Origin: a virus
Taxonomy: Duplodnaviria > Caudoviricetes
Length of the DNA stretch: 64,000 nucleotides
Reading direction: 5' to 3' (one strand)
IMG/VR virus record: IMGVR_UViG_3300023174_000047
Coordinates: 1 to 64,000 of that record
Position numbers and translations under genes: made by a program. The number at the start of each line of letters is the position of its first letter. Position 1 is the first letter of the stretch. Below the pieces are notes generated by a model. The model did not search any database. It saw only the letters and a program-made list of their open reading frames with translations, and was not told the DNA's origin. Of this stretch, positions 39,733 through 53,253 are shown piece after piece.

Positions 39733-40650
39733 TTATGCTGCTGCGCGCATTTTTAAAAGCATTTTTTCAATGGCTAAATCTTTCATTTTGAGTTCTACTT
39801 CGTAATCAACAGGCATACCGAAATCTTGAGGCAACAGATTAGCATAGTCTGCATGCTTGCGAGTACCATCAATTCCTTCACTGTAGTGAAATACAGGACG
39901 ACAAGGCCATGTGCTATATGCTACATCAAATGCTTCTTGATGACTCATGGCATCTCCGATCATTTCATGATGCAAGTTATCATATGTTACCGGAATTTGT
40001 TCAGTCTTGTACAATTGATTGTAAAGCTCTTGAATAGTCCATTGACCTTGCTTGTTGTCATTCACTTCAACAACTAACCGCTTGCGTACAGAGTCGGAAC
40101 ATTTGGATAGATTGCGACGAAACGTTTGCCCCAGTTTCTCCACGTCGCCTTGTTGTCGAATGTGAATATTAAGAGGAGACTCGTATCCCCGGGGCAACCC
40201 AAGGAGATCAAAGATCTCACCATGTTGCTCTAGGTCTCTAATAGAGTTTGCAACAACACCGTCATCTTCACTTGTTAGGGAGATGAATTCAGAAGGATGC
40301 GCACTGGTTCGAATGTTAGTATCAATAATGGCCTGCTTAGCTTCATCAATGGCATCGAAGATTTTATCTGCATCATCAAAGTCGAGTAGTGTCATGTTGA
40401 CAAGAGGGTGGTTGACAACTGGTACAAGATCTGAAGGTATGCGATATCGCTCAATGCCCATGTCCTTGCACATGTGTACAATTTTAGCAACAGCTTTAAA
40501 GTTGTTGATGATACGCAGTGCAAGAATTGATTCTGCTTGTTTGCGCGGCAGTTTAGCAAACCGCGTGTAGGTCATAGTTTGAAACTTAATGCCTTGCTCT
40601 TTACATTTAAGAGAAATGCAGCACAGACCGAGTGAATAATTATATTTCAT
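39733..40650 (-). CDS. uvsE: UV DNA damage endonuclease UvsE
   Basis: LGLCC, YRIPSDL.P, SAHPSEFISL, NIH, VEVND, YDNLHH, HYSE..KHAD, E.KMKDLA. Confidence 0.9.
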   Translation of the reverse strand: MKYNYSLGLCCISLKCKEQGIKFQTMTYTRFAKLPRKQAESILALRIINNFKAVAKIVHMCKDMGIERYRIPSDLVPVVNHPLVNMTLLDFDDADKIFDAIDEAKQAIIDTNIRTSAHPSEFISLTSEDDGVVANSIRDLEQHGEIFDLLGLPRGYESPLNIHIRQQGDVEKLGQTFRRNLSKCSDSVRKRLVVEVNDNKQGQWTIQELYNQLYKTEQIPVTYDNLHHEMIGDAMSHQEAFDVAYSTWPCRPVFHYSEGIDGTRKHADYANLLPQDFGMPVDYEVELKMKDLAIEKMLLKMRAAA

Positions 40651-40690: not shown

Positions 40691-40721
40691 AAAAAACCCG
40701 AGCAGCTTTGTGCTGCTCGGG
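40691..40721 (-). terminator. terminator after queF
   Basis: CCCGAGCAGC-ACAAA-GCTGCTCGGG + T6 on the minus strand. Confidence 0.85.
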
Positions 40722-40759
40722 TAGGGGCGTCCACCATTGTTGCTGTTACAAGCAACAAA

Positions 40760-41692
40760 TTATTGTTTTGTTGTTTTAATATGGCAATATTCAATATTAC
40801 TCAACGAACCGTGCAGTAGTGTCTCACATGAAACACGTTCCGGATTGATATCAATGCCGCCGCGACGAGCATACAAACAAATGACTGACAATGCATCTGG
40901 CTGCAGCACATCATGCAAACGCTTGTAAATGGTCTCACAAATCTCCTCATGAAAGTGGCACTCATCACGGAAAGAAATGATGTAGCGCAGCAGTGATTCA
41001 GGAGTCACAGTCTTGCTACCGTTGTAATGAATCAAAATATCACCAAAATCTGGCTGCGAAGTTACACGACAATTACTTTTGAGTAATGCACTATGATACT
41101 TGTATGTGTTACGGTTGAAACCACGATGCTTTGCATGATCAATGACTTCAAGTAGGTCGGGTGTCTCTTGATACACAGTCACCTCACCATCATCATCATA
41201 AATATTTTCAAGAGTCTCATACTCTTCGAGCATGTACTCATCTATTACAGATGTTTGCTCACAAATTGCTTCATAATTGCTGAAAACCTTGACTTGAACG
41301 TCAGTCTCTAACAACTGACTCAAATCACGTGATGCATGTGCTGCAATGGCGTCGCGGACTTCATCTGCTGTTTCAGCCAATTTGGTCATGTTGAATGAAT
41401 TGAAATACAATTTGATGGATTTAGATTCAACAATATACTTACTAGAGCAAGGGTACACAATCTTTCCGATGCCTGTAACAGGCAATCCTTTGTGTGTGAG
41501 TGCAGATATCTCATAAGCATTCCATGTATCATTACCATAGAAAGGTATGTTATCATCTGAAATATCTAGATGCTTGCGGTTGTTGCTACGAGGCTCTCTT
41601 ACAAGAAGAGATGCATCATACTGAGACTTGTACTCCGAGGTCTTGCCGAGATGTACGCTAATGTTGCTGTTATCGAGTTGGGTTTGTGCCAT
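40760..41692 (-). CDS. queF: NADPH-dependent preQ0 reductase QueF (bimodular)
   Basis: LGK.SEY...YD..LL, D.WNAYE.S, IVESKSIKLYFNSFN, LLKSNC.VT.QPD.G, FHEEICE, YARRGGIDINP. Confidence 0.93.
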   Translation of the reverse strand: MAQTQLDNSNISVHLGKTSEYKSQYDASLLVREPRSNNRKHLDISDDNIPFYGNDTWNAYEISALTHKGLPVTGIGKIVYPCSSKYIVESKSIKLYFNSFNMTKLAETADEVRDAIAAHASRDLSQLLETDVQVKVFSNYEAICEQTSVIDEYMLEEYETLENIYDDDGEVTVYQETPDLLEVIDHAKHRGFNRNTYKYHSALLKSNCRVTSQPDFGDILIHYNGSKTVTPESLLRYIISFRDECHFHEEICETIYKRLHDVLQPDALSVICLYARRGGIDINPERVSCETLLHGSLSNIEYCHIKTTKQ

Positions 41693-42227
41693 ATTGTTTG
41701 AGTGTTTCTTTGATTGTGTGCATGCGCTGTTCAATGCTACCAGCTAATTTAACAATTTGTTCTGGTTTGCAATAATTATTTAAATAAGAATCAATCCGCT
41801 GTGCAATATCATTTCTAAAATCAATGCTGGTTGATCTTTCACCATCATCAACCAAGTCAAAATCTGCTGAACAATAGAAAAAGATATCCACTTTGTTAAT
41901 AAGCAAACTAACTAAATGCCATGCATACTCATGCACCCACGTGCTTACTTTTCCATGTTTATAAAGCCAGTGCGTATATATTAACCCATCAACGATGCAT
42001 CTATCCATAATAACATCACCTTTAATGAACGAATTGGCAAGATGTTGATTGAGTATTAGCAATTGAGTCATATCACCTGCCTGCTCGTTGATGGGTACAT
42101 TATACTGTCTCTTGACAAGACGAGTAACCTCTTCTACATATGTAAAATTATCACCAAATTCTTGCTTGCACAATTTAAGAAGAGATGATTTACCAGTGCT
42201 ACCTGCTCCTGTGAATGATATTACCAT
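41670..42227 (-). CDS. P-loop kinase (dNMP-kinase / AAA_28-like)
   Basis: ISFTGAGSTGKSS, MDRCIVD, DDG.R. Confidence 0.8.
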   Translation of the reverse strand: MVISFTGAGSTGKSSLLKLCKQEFGDNFTYVEEVTRLVKRQYNVPINEQAGDMTQLLILNQHLANSFIKGDVIMDRCIVDGLIYTHWLYKHGKVSTWVHEYAWHLVSLLINKVDIFFYCSADFDLVDDGERSTSIDFRNDIAQRIDSYLNNYCKPEQIVKLAGSIEQRMHTIKETLKQYGTNPTR

Positions 42228-42231
42228 GTTG

Positions 42232-42792
42232 TTACAATATTGTGTTAATGAATTTCTTCCACTGTTCAATAGAAGTTTTTTTGAGAGTATTAATCACTTC
42301 ATCAGCATTTTTGCAATGAGCAATTGTTACTTTGTCATATGATGCAATGGGACCACCATCAATTTCAGATGTGACTCTATGAATAACACATCCACTCATA
42401 GGCATCTTCAGATCATATGCTTTTTGCTGAGGATCTTTACCTTTGAGTTGAGGAAACTTTACAATATCTCCTGGGTGTCCATTGAAGATCTGGTGCTGTT
42501 CACAAACATCACCAGGTACAATTTTTAGCCACCCATGCAAAGTAACAACTGGATCTTCATACGGTGAAAAAGCATTGAATAACGATTTATATGTTTTGCT
42601 GTTGATAATATCTTTATAAGATAACCAAATTAAATTGGTATTACCCCACTTGCTTATATCCACTTCTTCAGCATTTGTAATGACTGCATCTGGCCAAATG
42701 CCAAGCTCTGAGCATACTGCATGCAGCTCACTACCCGTCTGCGAGAACATTGCTATCCAACAACGCTTTGTTTTTTGTTTATTTTCTTTCAT
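42232..42792 (-). CDS. PurN-like formyltransferase (DpdN-like)
   Basis: AMFSQTGSEL, LHGWLKIVP, IFNGHPG, GC.IHRVT.EIDGGPI. Confidence 0.82.
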   Translation of the reverse strand: MKENKQKTKRCWIAMFSQTGSELHAVCSELGIWPDAVITNAEEVDISKWGNTNLIWLSYKDIINSKTYKSLFNAFSPYEDPVVTLHGWLKIVPGDVCEQHQIFNGHPGDIVKFPQLKGKDPQQKAYDLKMPMSGCVIHRVTSEIDGGPIASYDKVTIAHCKNADEVINTLKKTSIEQWKKFINTIL

Positions 42793-43586
42793 CCTGCAAT
42801 AATGTGTTTGAAGTTTTTAATGTTGTATTTGATCTTTCTCATTTGTTCATCTGTAACCTCTGCATCAATCATTTCAACAAGTTTCTGTGACGGTTTAATC
42901 TCTAAACCAAATTCTCCGTTGTATGCATATCCCTTGATACCACACACGACAGGATTGCTTGTGTCTACAGAGTAGATGTTGCCTACGCCTTTGCGGGTAT
43001 AATTAGAAAATTCACGAGCAAGCGAACACCCCAGCAAGTGATGTGGTTTGTTATGATTCCAGATACCATCGTGAATCAAATCATCAATGAGTGAAATTCT
43101 GCCATTGCATTGAAGTTCAAGTTTAGTATTACCCAGCCCAGTGAATTGATAATAAGACATATCAAAGCTAATGGCAATCATATTAGCATTATCCGACATA
43201 AACTTATAGCAATCAACAATCTCACCATAAGTTTTACCTTGAATTGTTCCAATTCTCATGCCCGGCAGATCATCATATGTAGATGCAAACTTAATGAAGT
43301 TCTCAATAGTTTTATAGCCATCTTCTAGTACATCAGGAAGAACATAATATGTTGGTTGTAGTTTTTTAATCCATTCAGCATATTTTTCCGATTCAAATGC
43401 TTCACCCAACTCAAAAATACTATTATCAAGCAGTACATCTCTGCCTTGCTGACGAGCATAAAAAAAGTATTCGTAATACTGCGGGTGTGTCTCAAATAAA
43501 TGAACTAACGCATATGAATAGTCTGTTAAATCATCAACTTCTTTCATGATGCTAATGGGTGCCTCGTGGGCTACTTTGATTTTCAT
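42789..43586 (-). CDS. TGT/DpdA-like TIM-barrel deazaguanine transglycosylase (DpdA3-like)
   Basis: LLDNSIFE, LPDV, GTIQG, AISF, HHLLGC, SVDTS; operon with queF and the formyltransferase. Confidence 0.7.
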   Translation of the reverse strand: MKIKVAHEAPISIMKEVDDLTDYSYALVHLFETHPQYYEYFFYARQQGRDVLLDNSIFELGEAFESEKYAEWIKKLQPTYYVLPDVLEDGYKTIENFIKFASTYDDLPGMRIGTIQGKTYGEIVDCYKFMSDNANMIAISFDMSYYQFTGLGNTKLELQCNGRISLIDDLIHDGIWNHNKPHHLLGCSLAREFSNYTRKGVGNIYSVDTSNPVVCGIKGYAYNGEFGLEIKPSQKLVEMIDAEVTDEQMRKIKYNIKNFKHIIAG

Positions 43587-47379: not shown

Positions 47380-48381
47380 TTAGAAATCATCGGCTAAAGC
47401 TCCTGCAGATTGATACTCAGTTACACGAGTTTCAAAGAAATTCTTTGCTTTAAGTAAATCTTGCACTTCGGATAAGAAGTCAAAAGGATTTTTATCGTTT
47501 TCAAATCTAAACTTCATGCCCACACTCTCAAGTCGGCGATTGCCAATGTATTGCATATAATCAATAAACATGGTGGGGCTGAGCCCTATAATTCCGGGAG
47601 GCAAGACATCTTGTGCATACTTTGTTTCAAGTATCACAGCTTCTGCCAGACATTCAGTCAGGTCTTTTTCAAATTCTTCATTCCATACATCTGGATATTG
47701 CTCTTTAATCTTAGTAATGAGCGATGCACCAAAAGCAATGTGTAATGATTCATCACGTAAGGTATATTCAATCTGCTCTCCAATGCCGGGAATTTTATTT
47801 TTAATGGCTAGCATCATGGCAAAACCGCTAAAAAAGAAAGTACCTTCACATACAACCCAGTATAAAAATGCAGCCTTGGTGATTGCTCGTCGCCCTTCAA
47901 CTGTACTTGCATCAATATCTTTGTTGATAGTCTTAGTTACGCGCATCAAAAAGTCATCTTTAGCTTTAATGCTAGGAATGTTGTTGTGTGCTTCATACAC
48001 TTCATTGAGGTCAAGTTTGAGCGAATCACAGATGTAAACAACAGTATCATTGTGCAAACATTCTTCCCAAATCTGCCGCGCCATGTATTGGCGACATTCA
48101 GGATCTGTAATGTGTTTGAACAAGGTGACTAGGTTATTACCAACTAGAGATTCAGATCCAGCAAAAAAGCCCAAGCAGCGCTTAATCACAGTCTTTTCTG
48201 CATCAGTAATAGTACCACTATTCCAATTGAGAATATCTCTAGTCATTGGAACATCTTCTGGATTCCAATGATTATTTTTACCTTTGCGATACAACTCCCA
48301 AGCCCATTTATTAACATGCGGCAAAATTTGATTGACGCCCTCTGTATTCTTACCAAAAATTTCGCCTGTTTTCTTATGCAT
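47380..48381 (-). CDS. nrdB: ribonucleotide reductase class Ia beta subunit
   Basis: W.PEDVP...D, EE.LH.D.., EGTFFFSGF, RDESLH..FG, NFFE.RV.EY. Confidence 0.95.
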   Translation of the reverse strand: MHKKTGEIFGKNTEGVNQILPHVNKWAWELYRKGKNNHWNPEDVPMTRDILNWNSGTITDAEKTVIKRCLGFFAGSESLVGNNLVTLFKHITDPECRQYMARQIWEECLHNDTVVYICDSLKLDLNEVYEAHNNIPSIKAKDDFLMRVTKTINKDIDASTVEGRRAITKAAFLYWVVCEGTFFFSGFAMMLAIKNKIPGIGEQIEYTLRDESLHIAFGASLITKIKEQYPDVWNEEFEKDLTECLAEAVILETKYAQDVLPPGIIGLSPTMFIDYMQYIGNRRLESVGMKFRFENDKNPFDFLSEVQDLLKAKNFFETRVTEYQSAGALADDF

Positions 48382-48656: not shown

Positions 48657-49490
48657 ATGCGAATGTTATTTGAAAATTATTATAATGATGCGTTAAAGTT
48701 CAGTGAACAACTGTATCGTAACCTTCTTAAAAATCCACCGGCTCCTTCAGATGAAGTTGCGGGTAATAGTTTAGTAACTATTGTGCATGGAACACCAGAT
48801 ATAATAGTTACCTTTTATAAAGCTGCATTATCTAGAAAAGATGATTCACAGGCTTACATGATAAATATGCATCAGGACAAGCGTACCACTGTAGTTACAC
48901 CGGCAGGTCACAAACGCCGCCGCAAATTAGTAGTCGATGGATCCATGGGCATAAATGTTGCAAATATTATTCAACTATATAAGCACCAAATAAGTGATTA
49001 TGATGTGTTAAAACCATACATCAAAAAAGTTGGAAAGAATGCTTATGCTTTTGATGACCGTATTACAATGAATATTTTCCTTAACATTGTAATGGATTTA
49101 ATTACAACCAACATCTTTGCAAAAATATTTACTCATGAAATACAGCACTTTTATAATCCTTTTGTGCATAAGCGTGCAGAGCAAATACGGAAACATGAGA
49201 CAGGAGAAAAACTTACTGCACAGCAACAGCGAGATATAAACTATACGTTTTCAGATCAAGAAATTAATAGCCGCATAACAGAAGCAGCTGCAAGCATTAT
49301 TGGCAACCCTATTTTTGCAAGGTACTTCTCATCACCTAAATTTCTCCCACGCTTCATCAATGCATGCATTGATGAATTGAGAGTTGAAAGGCTGTGGGAA
49401 GATTACCCTGAAGCAATCAAGCGAAAAATGGTCAAGCGCTGGACTCAAATATTTCACGAAAGAGTGAATAAAGATCCAGCGCTTGATTGA
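48657..49490 (+). CDS. putative HExxH metallopeptidase, probable internal head protein
   Basis: FTHEIQH, EINSR..E; leader MRMLFENYY; TAAATA upstream. Confidence 0.65.
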   Translation: MRMLFENYYNDALKFSEQLYRNLLKNPPAPSDEVAGNSLVTIVHGTPDIIVTFYKAALSRKDDSQAYMINMHQDKRTTVVTPAGHKRRRKLVVDGSMGINVANIIQLYKHQISDYDVLKPYIKKVGKNAYAFDDRITMNIFLNIVMDLITTNIFAKIFTHEIQHFYNPFVHKRAEQIRKHETGEKLTAQQQRDINYTFSDQEINSRITEAAASIIGNPIFARYFSSPKFLPRFINACIDELRVERLWEDYPEAIKRKMVKRWTQIFHERVNKDPALD

Positions 49491-49496
49491 GTTCTA

Positions 49497-51977
49497 TTAC
49501 TGACAGCTACTGCAATCTGGGTTATCGATCATGCATGCCTTGATGGTGCCTGCGTCGTCTCCAATGGAGCTAACGATTGGCACAACAGCTTTAGAGGTTG
49601 TTACAGATGCCTTCTCAATGTCACTTGCACCACGGTTTCTCAAGTAATAAGTAGTCTTGAGCCCCAGCTCCCAAGCAAGCATATATACATCATTGAGGTA
49701 TTTGAGACTTGTTTTATCGTTGAACAAATTCACAGACATGGCCTGATCAATCCATTTGCCGCGAGCTGCTGCTGCTCTTAGCAACTGAAACTGATCAATC
49801 TGAAATGCTGTCTTGTATTTTGCTTGCAAGTATGCTTTGTGTTCTGCAGGAATATTAAGCTGCATAACATCACCATTCACACGTTTCACTTCATTGAGCA
49901 TGTTGTGATTCCACAGACCAAGCTGCTTGAGGTCATTGACAAACGGCTCACATATAACTGTAAAATCACCGCTGAGAGTAGAGTATACATAGATGTTATT
50001 GTATAGCGGTTCTGTGGTTGGACTGCACCCAACAATGCTGCTGATGGTTGCGGTTGGTGCAATTGCCATGGTGTTGCTATTACGCATACCGTTTTCCTTC
50101 ACAAGTTCTCTCACTTCCTTCCACTCTGCAAGATTCTCAGCTGCAACGTCAATGTGACCACGCTTGCTAGCAAGTTTGTTGTACGTATCAATGGGGAAGA
50201 TGCCTTGATCCCAGAGCGATCCTTTGTATGAAGAATATGCACCACGTTCTTTAGCAAGCAGTGCGCTTGCTTTGATGGTATGTAGTGAGATGAATTCATA
50301 AATTTCATCACCCAGCTTCACAGCTGCATCACTATCATAATTGACATCCATTGCGAATAGTAGATCATGCCATCCCATGCTGCCCATGCCAACGGGACGA
50401 TGCTTGGTGTTAGAGATTTTAGCCTCCTGAGTAGGATAGAAATTAATATCAATAACATTGTCAAGCATACGTGCTGCAGTTGTAATGGTATCTGCAAGCA
50501 GCGGCCAGTCAATTTCAACCTTGCCGTCAACAATTTTTGTATGTATACCGACATTTAGCGATCCAAGGTTACACACAGCTGTTTCACCGTATTCCTTAAT
50601 TTGCCGGTCATTATTGCGTTCAAAAGTAGTAGGAATATTATGCAAAATAACTTCGGTGCAAAGATTGCTGCTATGCACAACACCTACATGCTGATTTGAA
50701 TATCTAAGATTGCTTGGATCTTTGAATGTAACCCATGGGTGACCGGTTTCAAACAACATCTTGAGCATGAGCTTCCAAAGCTCTTTAGCAGATACCTCTT
50801 TAAACAGTCGCATTTCTCCACGCTTACCTTTTTCAACATACTCCCAATATTTTTGATCAAAAGCTTCACCCCACAATTCGTGCAGTTCTGGTGCTTCATC
50901 TGGACTCATGAGATACCATGCACCATCATTGCGGACCTGATTCATAAACAAGTCAGGAATCCAGTTGGCTGTATTCAAGTCGTGGCAGCGACGACGATCA
51001 TCTCCTGTATTCTTCTTGAGTTCCAGAAAATCATATATGTCATAGTGCCATGTTTCAAGATAGCCACACCCTGCGCCGCGTCGCTTGCCGCTCTGATTGA
51101 TGGCTACAAGCATATCATTGAACATCTTCCAGATGTATACAGATCCTTGTGTCTTGCCTCCAGTTGAAGAAATAGTAGCATTACCTGCACGGAACGGTGT
51201 GAAGTCCATGCCTAATCCACCAGCAAATTTACTCTTCTGAGCTTCTTGGTGCAACCCATCGAAAATACCTTCAAGTGAATCCTCAAAGGTGTTCAAGAAA
51301 CAGCTGCTCAATTGATTGCGAACACCTCCTGCATTAAACAACGTTGGTGTACTGGTCATGTAACGGAAAGTACTAAGCACTTCATAAAAACGAATTGCCC
51401 AGTCTGTACGAGCTTCTGGATGCTCTGCAAGCGCAAGCCCCATGGCGACTCGCATGAGCCATGACTGCGGTGCTTCAACAATCTCATCATTAATGCGGTA
51501 AAAATAGCGGTCATTGACAGTCTGCAAGCCAATGTATGGAAACAAATAATCTCTATCAAGCTTGAGCGCGTTGCTCAGGCGCTTCAAATCATACTTGAGA
51601 AGTTCTTTATTGACAATGCCTGCCTTGGAAAGCTTCTTGAGATTAGTAATGAACGATTTGCGATATTGCAAATCAAATGCATCGCTATCCACCCCCTCGC
51701 TAAACACTTGTTTATACAAAGCCTGCAACAACAAGCGCGCAGCAACAAACCGGTATTGCGGCTCCTGCTCAATTAAAGCGCGTGCTGATTTGATCAGAGA
51801 TTCATCAATGGCATCAGTAGGAATGCCATCGTATAACTTGAGCGTTGCATTATAAACAACTTGCTTATAATCAGTTGATTCAAGCCCTTTGCAGGCTCTT
51901 TTCGCACAGTTATGAATTTTCTTCTCATTAAACTCTTCTTCTTTACCGGAGCGTTTCTTAACTTTCATAGAACTCAT
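49497..51977 (-). CDS. nrdA: ribonucleotide reductase class Ia alpha subunit with ATP cone
   Basis: VKKRSG..E.F...KI, STPTLFNAG, LSSCF, SNLCTE, CNLGS, AIAPTATIS, KTTYYLR. Confidence 0.97.
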   Translation of the reverse strand: MSSMKVKKRSGKEEEFNEKKIHNCAKRACKGLESTDYKQVVYNATLKLYDGIPTDAIDESLIKSARALIEQEPQYRFVAARLLLQALYKQVFSEGVDSDAFDLQYRKSFITNLKKLSKAGIVNKELLKYDLKRLSNALKLDRDYLFPYIGLQTVNDRYFYRINDEIVEAPQSWLMRVAMGLALAEHPEARTDWAIRFYEVLSTFRYMTSTPTLFNAGGVRNQLSSCFLNTFEDSLEGIFDGLHQEAQKSKFAGGLGMDFTPFRAGNATISSTGGKTQGSVYIWKMFNDMLVAINQSGKRRGAGCGYLETWHYDIYDFLELKKNTGDDRRRCHDLNTANWIPDLFMNQVRNDGAWYLMSPDEAPELHELWGEAFDQKYWEYVEKGKRGEMRLFKEVSAKELWKLMLKMLFETGHPWVTFKDPSNLRYSNQHVGVVHSSNLCTEVILHNIPTTFERNNDRQIKEYGETAVCNLGSLNVGIHTKIVDGKVEIDWPLLADTITTAARMLDNVIDINFYPTQEAKISNTKHRPVGMGSMGWHDLLFAMDVNYDSDAAVKLGDEIYEFISLHTIKASALLAKERGAYSSYKGSLWDQGIFPIDTYNKLASKRGHIDVAAENLAEWKEVRELVKENGMRNSNTMAIAPTATISSIVGCSPTTEPLYNNIYVYSTLSGDFTVICEPFVNDLKQLGLWNHNMLNEVKRVNGDVMQLNIPAEHKAYLQAKYKTAFQIDQFQLLRAAAARGKWIDQAMSVNLFNDKTSLKYLNDVYMLAWELGLKTTYYLRNRGASDIEKASVTTSKAVVPIVSSIGDDAGTIKACMIDNPDCSSCQ

Positions 51978-52785: not shown

Positions 52786-53253
52786 TTATGCTTCCCATGG
52801 ATATCTAACCCATTGTGAGTTTTCTACAGCAAATATATCAGGCACATAATATGAATCATGTGCCCGGTGCAGCGTTGCGAAAATATGATTGCTGCAGTTG
52901 CTGTTATTTTTGAGATACTCTTTGATGCAGGAAATTGTTCGACCTGTATCACAAATATCATCTACAATCAAAACATTTCTGCTATCTACAAAGTCAGCAA
53001 GTTCTTTACCTATGTCATTGTAGAATTCAATGGTATCTGTTTGCTTCATATTCTCATAAGTTTTTATACCAATGATTCTCATTGGTATATTTAAATTATG
53101 CGCTAGCCACACTGCAGGCACTACACCGCCTCGCAGCAATCCGATGATGCAGTTAAATGATAAATTATTATCTGCTTCATACTGTTTAATTTTGCTTTGT
53201 AGTGAGTTGCAGAGATCATCAAATTCATGCCAGCTAAGATAATGTTTATCCAT
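52786..53253 (-). CDS. type I phosphoribosyltransferase (xanthine/guanine PRT-like)
   Basis: IIGLLRGG.VPA, VLIVDDICDTGRT, WV.YPWE. Confidence 0.88.
   Translation of the reverse strand: MDKHYLSWHEFDDLCNSLQSKIKQYEADNNLSFNCIIGLLRGGVVPAVWLAHNLNIPMRIIGIKTYENMKQTDTIEFYNDIGKELADFVDSRNVLIVDDICDTGRTISCIKEYLKNNSNCSNHIFATLHRAHDSYYVPDIFAVENSQWVRYPWEA

Follow-up and report, generated by a model that had tools for sequence, protein, structure and literature searches.

How does a phage come to carry a genome in which guanine is completely replaced by a 7-deazaguanine, and is the base exchanged in finished DNA or earlier, among the free nucleotides? This question is raised by a four-gene operon of the uncultured phage recorded in IMG/VR as IMGVR_UViG_3300023174_000047. 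The record spans 203,774 bp (CheckV 96%), and its first 64 kb are the stretch analysed here (the window). At positions 43586-40760 on the minus strand, four co-directional open reading frames (ORFs) encode DpdA3, a guanine transglycosylase with the fold of the tRNA-guanine transglycosylases (TGT), the formyltransferase DpdN, a P-loop kinase and QueF. It represents the DNA-insertion half of a guanine-replacement system of an already known kind, the DpdA3/DpdN system, which gives 7-(formylamino)methyl-7-deazaguanine (fdPreQ1). By itself, this gene set is ordinary: the system was described in 2023, and the present phage is a further uncultured one that carries it. The value of the locus lies in a comparative result: complete guanine replacement has been linked to DpdA3 and to no other DpdA type, and DpdA3 is always found with a nucleoside-kinase-like partner.

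The operon and its counterpart in phage immuto

The operon consists of the following features. Immuto is the Flavobacterium phage vB_FspM_immuto, CP220 a Campylobacter phage, and lengths are in amino acids (aa).

42789 to 43586, minus strand: DpdA3-type guanine transglycosylase (P0003), 265 aa; first gene of the operon, assigned by its TGT fold and its identity to the immuto and CP220 proteins
42232 to 42792, minus strand: DpdN-type, PurN-like formyltransferase (P0004), 186 aa; assigned by PF00551 and 42.6% identity to immuto gp67
41670 to 42227, minus strand: P-loop nucleoside/nucleotide kinase, 185 aa from a conserved ATG; Pfam AAA_28; the frame can also be read from a TTG at 42269
40760 to 41692, minus strand: bimodular (type II) QueF, the preQ0 to preQ1 reductase, 310 aa from the ATG at 41692; QueF_N and QueF domains; the ORF is open from 41734
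40696 to 40722, minus strand: intrinsic terminator with an 11-bp stem (8 G-C pairs) and a 5-nt loop, followed by TTTTTTATGTT

The genes are tightly packed. DpdA3 shares 4 nt with DpdN. When the conserved ATG starts are used, a gap of 4 nt separates DpdN from the kinase, and the kinase gene runs 23 nt into QueF. The terminator is a strong one, and its G+C-rich hairpin with a T run begins 38 nt past the QueF stop codon. A promoter scan of the operon region returned 18 sites where 17.8 were expected, which is chance level. The original prediction, made from the sequence of the window, had described overlapping minus-strand TGT-like, PurN-like, P-loop kinase and QueF genes closed by a terminator. 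All of these are present, and the gene identities were correct (TGT fold, PF00551/PurN, AAA_28, and QueF_N plus QueF).

When cultured phages were searched with blastn, immuto was the sole match. Its annotated gene order is DpdA, a small ORF, a formyltransferase, a 'thymidylate kinase' and QueF, with FolE, a phosphoribosyltransferase, QueE and QueD just upstream. The phage studied here shares the same four genes with immuto_2-6A in the same order and orientation (51/43/30/45% identity), and its FolE, QueD and purine phosphoribosyltransferase (PRTase) also match. Each of the two is a large phage of the myovirus type from aquatic bacteria. Immuto DNA contains 345,000 fdPreQ1 per 10^6 nt, the dG peak is absent, and the enzymes were named DpdA3 and DpdN (Cui et al. 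2023, PMC10516641). The same study already listed uncultured phages with DpdN.

The two phages also differ in several respects. The immuto cassette is contiguous with the que genes, a MazG-like (PRA-PH) gene and the PRTase gene, whereas here these genes are dispersed at 52.8, 72-76 and 92.8 kb. The QueE found here is of another subtype, and a tblastn comparison with immuto QueE gave no match. The genome lacks a MazG-like gene. QueE is followed by a Nudix gene and a second kinase. Finally, the base chemistry of immuto was measured, whereas the present phage is known from its genes alone.

The genes for preQ0 synthesis lie outside the window in the same genome: FolE at ~75.4 kb, QueD at ~74.0 kb, a QueE-like radical-SAM protein at 72.1-73.0 kb, which matches PHROG 2076, and QueC at ~92.8 kb. 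The original prediction had placed these four genes beyond the window, and the genome search located every one of them there. Because the cassette is homologous to that of immuto and the genome holds a complete preQ1 pathway, it is likely that fdPreQ1 replaces most or all of the guanine in the virion DNA. An fdPreQ1 genome had been predicted from the window, and the collinearity with immuto_2-6A, which was measured as fully fdPreQ1, together with the complete pathway supports that prediction.

Assignment of DpdA3, DpdN and QueF

The 265-aa DpdA3 gave no sequence match in Pfam, NCBIfam or the PDB (phmmer, and a profile against the PDB), and only a fold search revealed its kinship to TGT enzymes. 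The AlphaFold2 (AF2) model had a pLDDT of 91, and the best 50 Foldseek matches were all tRNA-guanine transglycosylases. With VIA-align, the model scored Z 17.6 against both ArcTGT (1iq8) and 7ui4, the DpdA that inserts preQ0 into DNA, with an rmsd of 2.9-3.2 over 231-234 aligned residues. The 7ui4 DpdA, archaeosine TGT and bacterial TGT tie at Z 17.4-17.6 over 231 of the 265 residues. At the sequence level, DpdA3 is 50.6% identical to immuto DpdA (gp65) across its full length of 265 aa (E 3e-77) and 39.5% identical to CP220 gp056 over 97% of its length. This (beta/alpha)8 fold shared with TGT and DpdA, the identity to the immuto and CP220 proteins and the co-encoded 7-deazaguanine synthesis genes place the protein in the DpdA3 subfamily.

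Among DpdA3 homologues, the motifs LDNSIFE, PDVLE, QG, KPHHLLG and DTSNP are invariant. The invariant residues D54 (LDNSIFE), D85 (PDVLE) and D208 (DTSNP) are located at the ends of barrel strands and are candidate counterparts of the catalytic Asp102 and Asp280 of TGT. A quick hhalign comparison with DpdA1 of Enterobacteria phage 9g detected no profile similarity (probability 1%). Acidity was considered as a proxy for DNA binding and rejected: DpdA3 homologues are acidic throughout, with a median pI of 5.3 (n=96), and the charge test does not discriminate because 9g DpdA1, a proven DNA enzyme, is equally acidic (pI 5.6).

A search for DpdA3 fusions yielded DpdA3-QueF fusions and an intein copy, but no protein that joins DpdA3 to a DNA-binding domain or a kinase. 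The finds are three metagenome proteins (P0125, P0126 and P0127): the two DpdA3-QueF fusions measure 531 and 568 aa, and the third protein is a DpdA3 split by an intein. The intein carries a LAGLIDADG endonuclease and is placed just past the LDNSIFE motif. Neither the fusions nor the intein are informative about the substrate of DpdA3.

DpdN matched Formyl_trans_N (PF00551) with an E value of 1.6e-8 and 35 bits (cut-off 26.1), and its family profile could be aligned over the full length of PurN structures (E 4.5e-15). The Asn-His-Asp triad of PurN is kept as N104, H106 and D145, which are invariant in 10 homologues. Judged by its identity to the immuto protein and its position between DpdA3 and the kinase, it would fall in the DpdN group that is co-encoded with DpdA and FolE-QueF (group 1 of Cui et al.). 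By homology, DpdN is predicted to formylate the aminomethyl group of preQ1, an activity that is likewise a prediction for immuto DpdN (PMC10516641). The N-terminal SQTGSE loop of DpdN aligns to the GAR-phosphate loop of PurN (SGxGSN). It was considered as evidence for a nucleotide substrate and dropped as too weak, because DpdN has an invariant Glu at the place of the Asn.

Two variations at the DpdN position were observed in related loci. In IMGVR_UViG_3300044953_000602, a GNAT acetyltransferase (PF00583; locus L013:6807-7358) fills the slot between DpdA3 and the kinase, which suggests an undescribed N-acetyl-preQ1 DNA base. In a second locus (L008:8145-9005), the DpdN homologue has a C-terminal extension of ~100 residues (286 aa in total), and ~1.3 kb without a forward ORF lies between it and DpdA3.

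QueF exceeded the Pfam cut-offs with both QueF_N (PF14819; E 2e-34, 118.7 bits) and QueF (PF14489; E 2.5e-24, 85.7 bits). Its translation shows the ESKSIKLY motif and the catalytic Cys in NCRVTSQPDFG, and it is 45% identical to immuto QueF. Since its score against the NCBIfam equivalog TIGR03138 was 257.7 bits and thus under the cut-off of 293.45, we regard it as a diverged member.

The kinase is the constant partner of DpdA3

In IMG/VR, more than 517 stretches encode DpdA3 relatives. Eighty IMG/VR DpdA3 loci had at least 2.5 kb of downstream sequence, and these contained the kinase in 79/80, QueF in 78/80 and DpdN in 29/80 cases. In the sole locus without the kinase, DpdN, the kinase and QueF are found 7 kb away on the same record. 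After dereplication at 90% identity, the kinase was present in all 73 evaluable lineages, QueF in 72 and DpdN in 48. The reverse test gave the same picture, as DpdA3 and QueF were found in each of the 58 kinase loci with sufficient upstream sequence. In loci that lack DpdN, the kinase starts a median of 2 nt downstream of DpdA3. According to these counts, the conserved core consists of DpdA3, the kinase and QueF, and DpdN is an optional insert.

The same link was seen among cultured phages. In 50,697 records, close matches to the kinase occurred in exactly the 18 that bear DpdA3 (14 Campylobacter phages and 4 immuto records); in the CP220 group, DpdA3 and the kinase are ~54 nt apart. The kinase is the universal adjoining partner of DpdA3 (73/73 lineages), Campylobacter phages included. 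Distant homologues of the kinase are found in Streptomyces phages without DpdA3. The literature that we searched never discusses a DpdA3-linked kinase, and the main text of Cui et al. 2023 (PMC10516641) contains neither the word 'kinase' nor 'phosphoribosyl'.

The Campylobacter phages of the CP220 type (Firehammervirus) resemble the present phage in that a DpdA3 homologue (39.5% identity) is directly followed by a kinase of the same family (35%). They have neither QueF nor DpdN, and their base is the amide ADG, with complete replacement of dG by dADG. Another difference is a gene that fuses an HD domain and a P-loop domain upstream of the DpdA3-kinase pair. In CP220 this is gp055 (locus L022:5862-6893), an HD phosphohydrolase fused to an AAA_33 P-loop kinase domain immediately upstream of the pair, and it may serve the dADG system as a nucleotide-pool enzyme. 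A further pairing was observed in Chryseobacterium phage MA9V-3 (PV245944; locus L109:4806-7774). Here, a small P-loop kinase of an unrelated kind (AAA_18/AAA_33) abuts the upstream side of a distant DpdA3-like gene (25% identity), apparently an independent pairing, and a dCTP-deaminase/dUTPase-like gene lies two genes upstream.

The DpdA1 system of Enterobacteria phage 9g is similar in that it combines a TGT-fold transglycosylase with FolE, QueD and QueE; the transglycosylase of the bacterial DpdA/DpdB system belongs to the same fold class. In contrast to the DpdA3 loci, the cluster of 9g (dG+, about 1/4 of G replaced) contains neither a kinase nor a PRTase, and replacement is partial.

What the kinase resembles

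The kinase matched Pfam AAA_28 (PF13521) with 45.4 bits (cut-off 27) and is 30% identical to immuto gp68. In its family, ~28 residues beyond the P-loop are invariant across the acceptor region and the LID, which argues for a genuine small-molecule kinase. When the family profile was compared with the PDB, the best match was the ribosylnicotinamide kinase (RNK) domain of NadR (6gye; E 6e-5), with which it has a DDGxR LID motif in common, and thymidylate kinase (TMPK) came next (E 0.003). The AF2 model (pLDDT 88.6) aligned with NadR RNK at Z 18.3-18.7, and deoxycytidine kinase (dCK), deoxyadenosine kinase (dAK), deoxyguanosine kinase and TMPK followed at Z 16-17 (<=16.9); the Foldseek order was similar. 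Thus the profile and the model place the kinase nearer, if by a small margin, to nucleoside kinases than to nucleoside monophosphate kinases. It is not of the guanylate-kinase family, and it gave no match to the thymidylate kinase family PF02223 at E 0.01 or better. The label 'thymidylate kinase' is borne by PHROG 2107, which matches the kinase, and by the GenBank annotations of the immuto and CP220 homologues. The kinase belongs to the NadR RNK/AAA_28 fold family, a membership that is no guide to its acceptor. The original prediction had called the gene dNMP-kinase-like; the comparisons put it closer to nucleoside kinases than to dNMP kinases.

Accessory genes in the genome

A PRTase gene, 9 kb away from the operon, is a probable accessory member of the system.

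52786 to 53250, minus strand: 6-oxopurine phosphoribosyltransferase (Pribosyltran), with a start probably near 53250

Its product matched Pribosyltran (PF00156) with 60 bits, and in the PDB its best match was the purine phosphoribosyltransferase 1vdm (9.5e-18), followed by XGPRT and HGPRT. Every NCBIfam equivalog scored under its cut-off. It is 31% identical to immuto gp60, which is encoded within the immuto que cluster, and homologues are embedded in que clusters of immuto and of relatives (loci L021 and L199). The original prediction had suggested that this PRTase and the ribonucleotide reductase may feed the pathway. The synteny with immuto gp60, L021 and L199 supports the first part; a specific link to the reductase, an ordinary T4-like NrdAB, is not supported.

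Outside the window, at 70684-73013 of the genome on the minus strand, a second operon encodes the QueE-like protein, a Nudix protein, a 75-aa ORF and, as its last gene, a second AAA_28 kinase paralogue (kinase-2; 244 aa, genome 70684-71418). Kinase-2 follows QueE in 7/18 related QueE loci, once with a phosphoribosyltransferase in between (QueE-PRT-kinase-2, L199).

Exchange in the nucleotide pool or in DNA

The route that we favour, although we hold it with no better than even confidence, is a pre-replicative one. DpdA3 would swap the base on a free deoxyguanosine compound, and the kinase and the polymerase would follow; we infer every substrate along this route. By homology, FolE, QueD, QueE and QueC are predicted to convert GTP to preQ0, QueF to reduce preQ0 to preQ1, and DpdN to formylate the aminomethyl group. 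On the favoured route, DpdA3 would then exchange guanine for preQ1 or formyl-preQ1 on dG or dGMP, not on finished DNA. The NadR/dNK-like (deoxynucleoside kinase-like) kinase, perhaps with the paralogue beside QueE, would phosphorylate the product toward the triphosphate, which the phage polymerase would incorporate. The purine PRTase would take the released guanine to GMP and GTP for FolE, which would pull the exchange forward and close the cycle. A stronger form falls somewhat short of even confidence: DpdA3 may not be a DNA transglycosylase but the first TGT enzyme to act on a free deoxynucleoside or deoxynucleotide, in a pathway with the kinase(s) and the PRTase that would explain why 100% replacement is attained by DpdA3 phages only.

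Complete base replacements with known routes, namely hydroxymethylcytosine in T4, hydroxymethyluracil in SPO1 and Z in S-2L, are made in the nucleotide pool. In T4, the route uses the dCTPase gp56, the dCMP hydroxymethylase gp42 and the dNMP kinase gp1, and the Z-genome of S-2L depends on PurZ, MazZ and DatZ. Under the favoured route, the present system would resemble these in having a base-altering enzyme that acts on a monophosphate together with a dedicated kinase. However, it has no homology to their enzymes, and a transglycosylase that acts on free nucleotides would be without known precedent. A (d)NTP hydrolase of varying family is found in the related clusters: immuto has a MazG-like gene, CP220 an HD domain, MA9V-3 a dUTPase-like gene and the present phage a Nudix gene.

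We favour the pool route because it gives every conserved partner a role and because 100% replacement would then be made as in T4, SPO1 and S-2L. It also fits two published observations: DpdA3 expressed alone in E. coli led to no DNA modification, and the ADG nucleoside was detected in CP220-infected cells (PMC10516641). In addition, the pool route would explain partial replacement in kinase-less DpdA1 phages such as 9g. Substitution at the precursor level had been suggested on the basis of the kinase gene. The 73/73 partnership with DpdA3 strengthens this suggestion and leaves it unproven, as guanine salvage would fit post-replicative exchange too.

Several points weigh against the pool route. 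We know of no TGT-family enzyme that acts on free nucleosides or nucleotides, and the nearest solved folds to DpdA3 act on tRNA or DNA. TMPK and the deoxynucleoside kinases score only 1.5-2 Z units under NadR RNK, so that neither sequence nor fold can tell the acceptor of the kinase. A dGTPase had been proposed as something to look for; when we searched the genome for dGTP-clearing enzymes, MazG, HD and PRA-PH were all absent, and the sole candidate hydrolase was the Nudix gene beside QueE, with weak NudB and MutT similarity. Such Nudix genes are often carried by T4-like phages anyway. The kinase and the PRTase can equally be read as guanine salvage, and the phage is uncultured and known from its sequence alone. 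Moreover, insertion after replication is what Cui et al. propose for every DpdA family (PMC10516641).

This published alternative, which we consider less likely, though it too is coherent and clearly the strongest of the rivals, holds that DNA is first made with G and that DpdA3 then swaps the G in the duplex, while the kinase(s) and the PRTase salvage guanine to GMP, GDP and GTP for FolE. The DpdA3 fold is that of the DNA preQ0 insertase DpdA (7ui4) at Z 17.6, and DpdA1 and bDpdA were shown to be DNA transglycosylases, a function that Cui et al. extend to DpdA3 (PMC10516641). The guanine/xanthine type of the phosphoribosyltransferase and its place in que clusters beside the GTP-consuming FolE/QueE would also suit salvage, as would the genome's lack of a clear dGTPase suit exchange in the duplex. 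The kinase, however, does not fit this scheme well. It is not from the guanylate-kinase family, and thus wrong for GMP, and is most like nucleoside kinases. It is tied to DpdA3 and not to FolE or the PRTase, and hosts already possess Gmk and Ndk. DpdA1 phages, which exchange up to 30%, lack such a kinase. DpdA3 alone left E. coli DNA unmodified. To swap all ~76,000 G of every genome copy once replication is over would also be kinetically demanding.

That DpdA3 by itself had no effect in E. coli, and that it is strictly adjacent to the kinase-like protein and co-occurs with it, could also be accounted for if this protein were no small-molecule kinase but an ATPase that assists DpdA3 on DNA, with a function like that of DpdB in bacterial Dpd systems. 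PreQ0 insertion by bacterial DpdA is reported to require the ATPase DpdB (Yuan et al. 2019; Gedara et al. 2023). We nevertheless regard a helper as improbable. DpdB is ParB-like and has another fold, and the kinase keeps a full dNK/RNK-type acceptor pocket, with invariant E33, T35, R36, K39, Q55 and D75-R76 and the DGERS and FR motifs of the LID, which would be needless for a mere ATPase.

Even less probable is a housekeeping dNMP or thymidylate kinase placed beside DpdA3 by chance. The name 'thymidylate kinase' in GenBank (immuto, CP220) and in PHROG 2107, TMPK structures at Z 16-17 and the distant homologues in Streptomyces phages without DpdA3 would agree with such a role. Against it stand the two-way co-occurrence (73/73 and 58/58), the near-zero intergenic distance, the exclusive overlap with DpdA3 among cultured phages and the lack of a PF02223 match. 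That the TGT-fold protein modifies RNA, for instance phage tRNAs, and leaves the DNA unmodified is hardly credible: although most solved relatives are tRNA enzymes and the window has a tRNA island, the protein is 51% identical to that of immuto, whose DNA is fully modified and in which no other TGT-like gene is assigned, and it is without the extra-barrel regions of the 360-410-residue tRNA enzymes (231/265 residues align).

If the pool route is correct, it would be a new enzymatic route to base-modified dNTPs, and it could be useful for restriction-resistant DNA and for 7-substituted deaza-dGTP analogues.

Neighbouring genes in the window

Besides the tRNA island, the window encodes a class I ribonucleotide reductase on the minus strand, consisting of NrdB (47380-48381) and NrdA with an ATP-cone (49497-51977). 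An ORF on the plus strand between the two (48657-49490) has a weak match to a DNA-polymerase-B exonuclease. NrdAB is ordinary T4-like content, and a specific link to the cassette is not supported. Just past the operon terminator begins a gene for a UvdE UV-damage/AP endonuclease (PF03851, E 4e-43; window 39733-40650, minus strand). Its adjacency to the operon is kept in close relatives only (6 loci), and a role of UvdE at abasic sites is conceivable.

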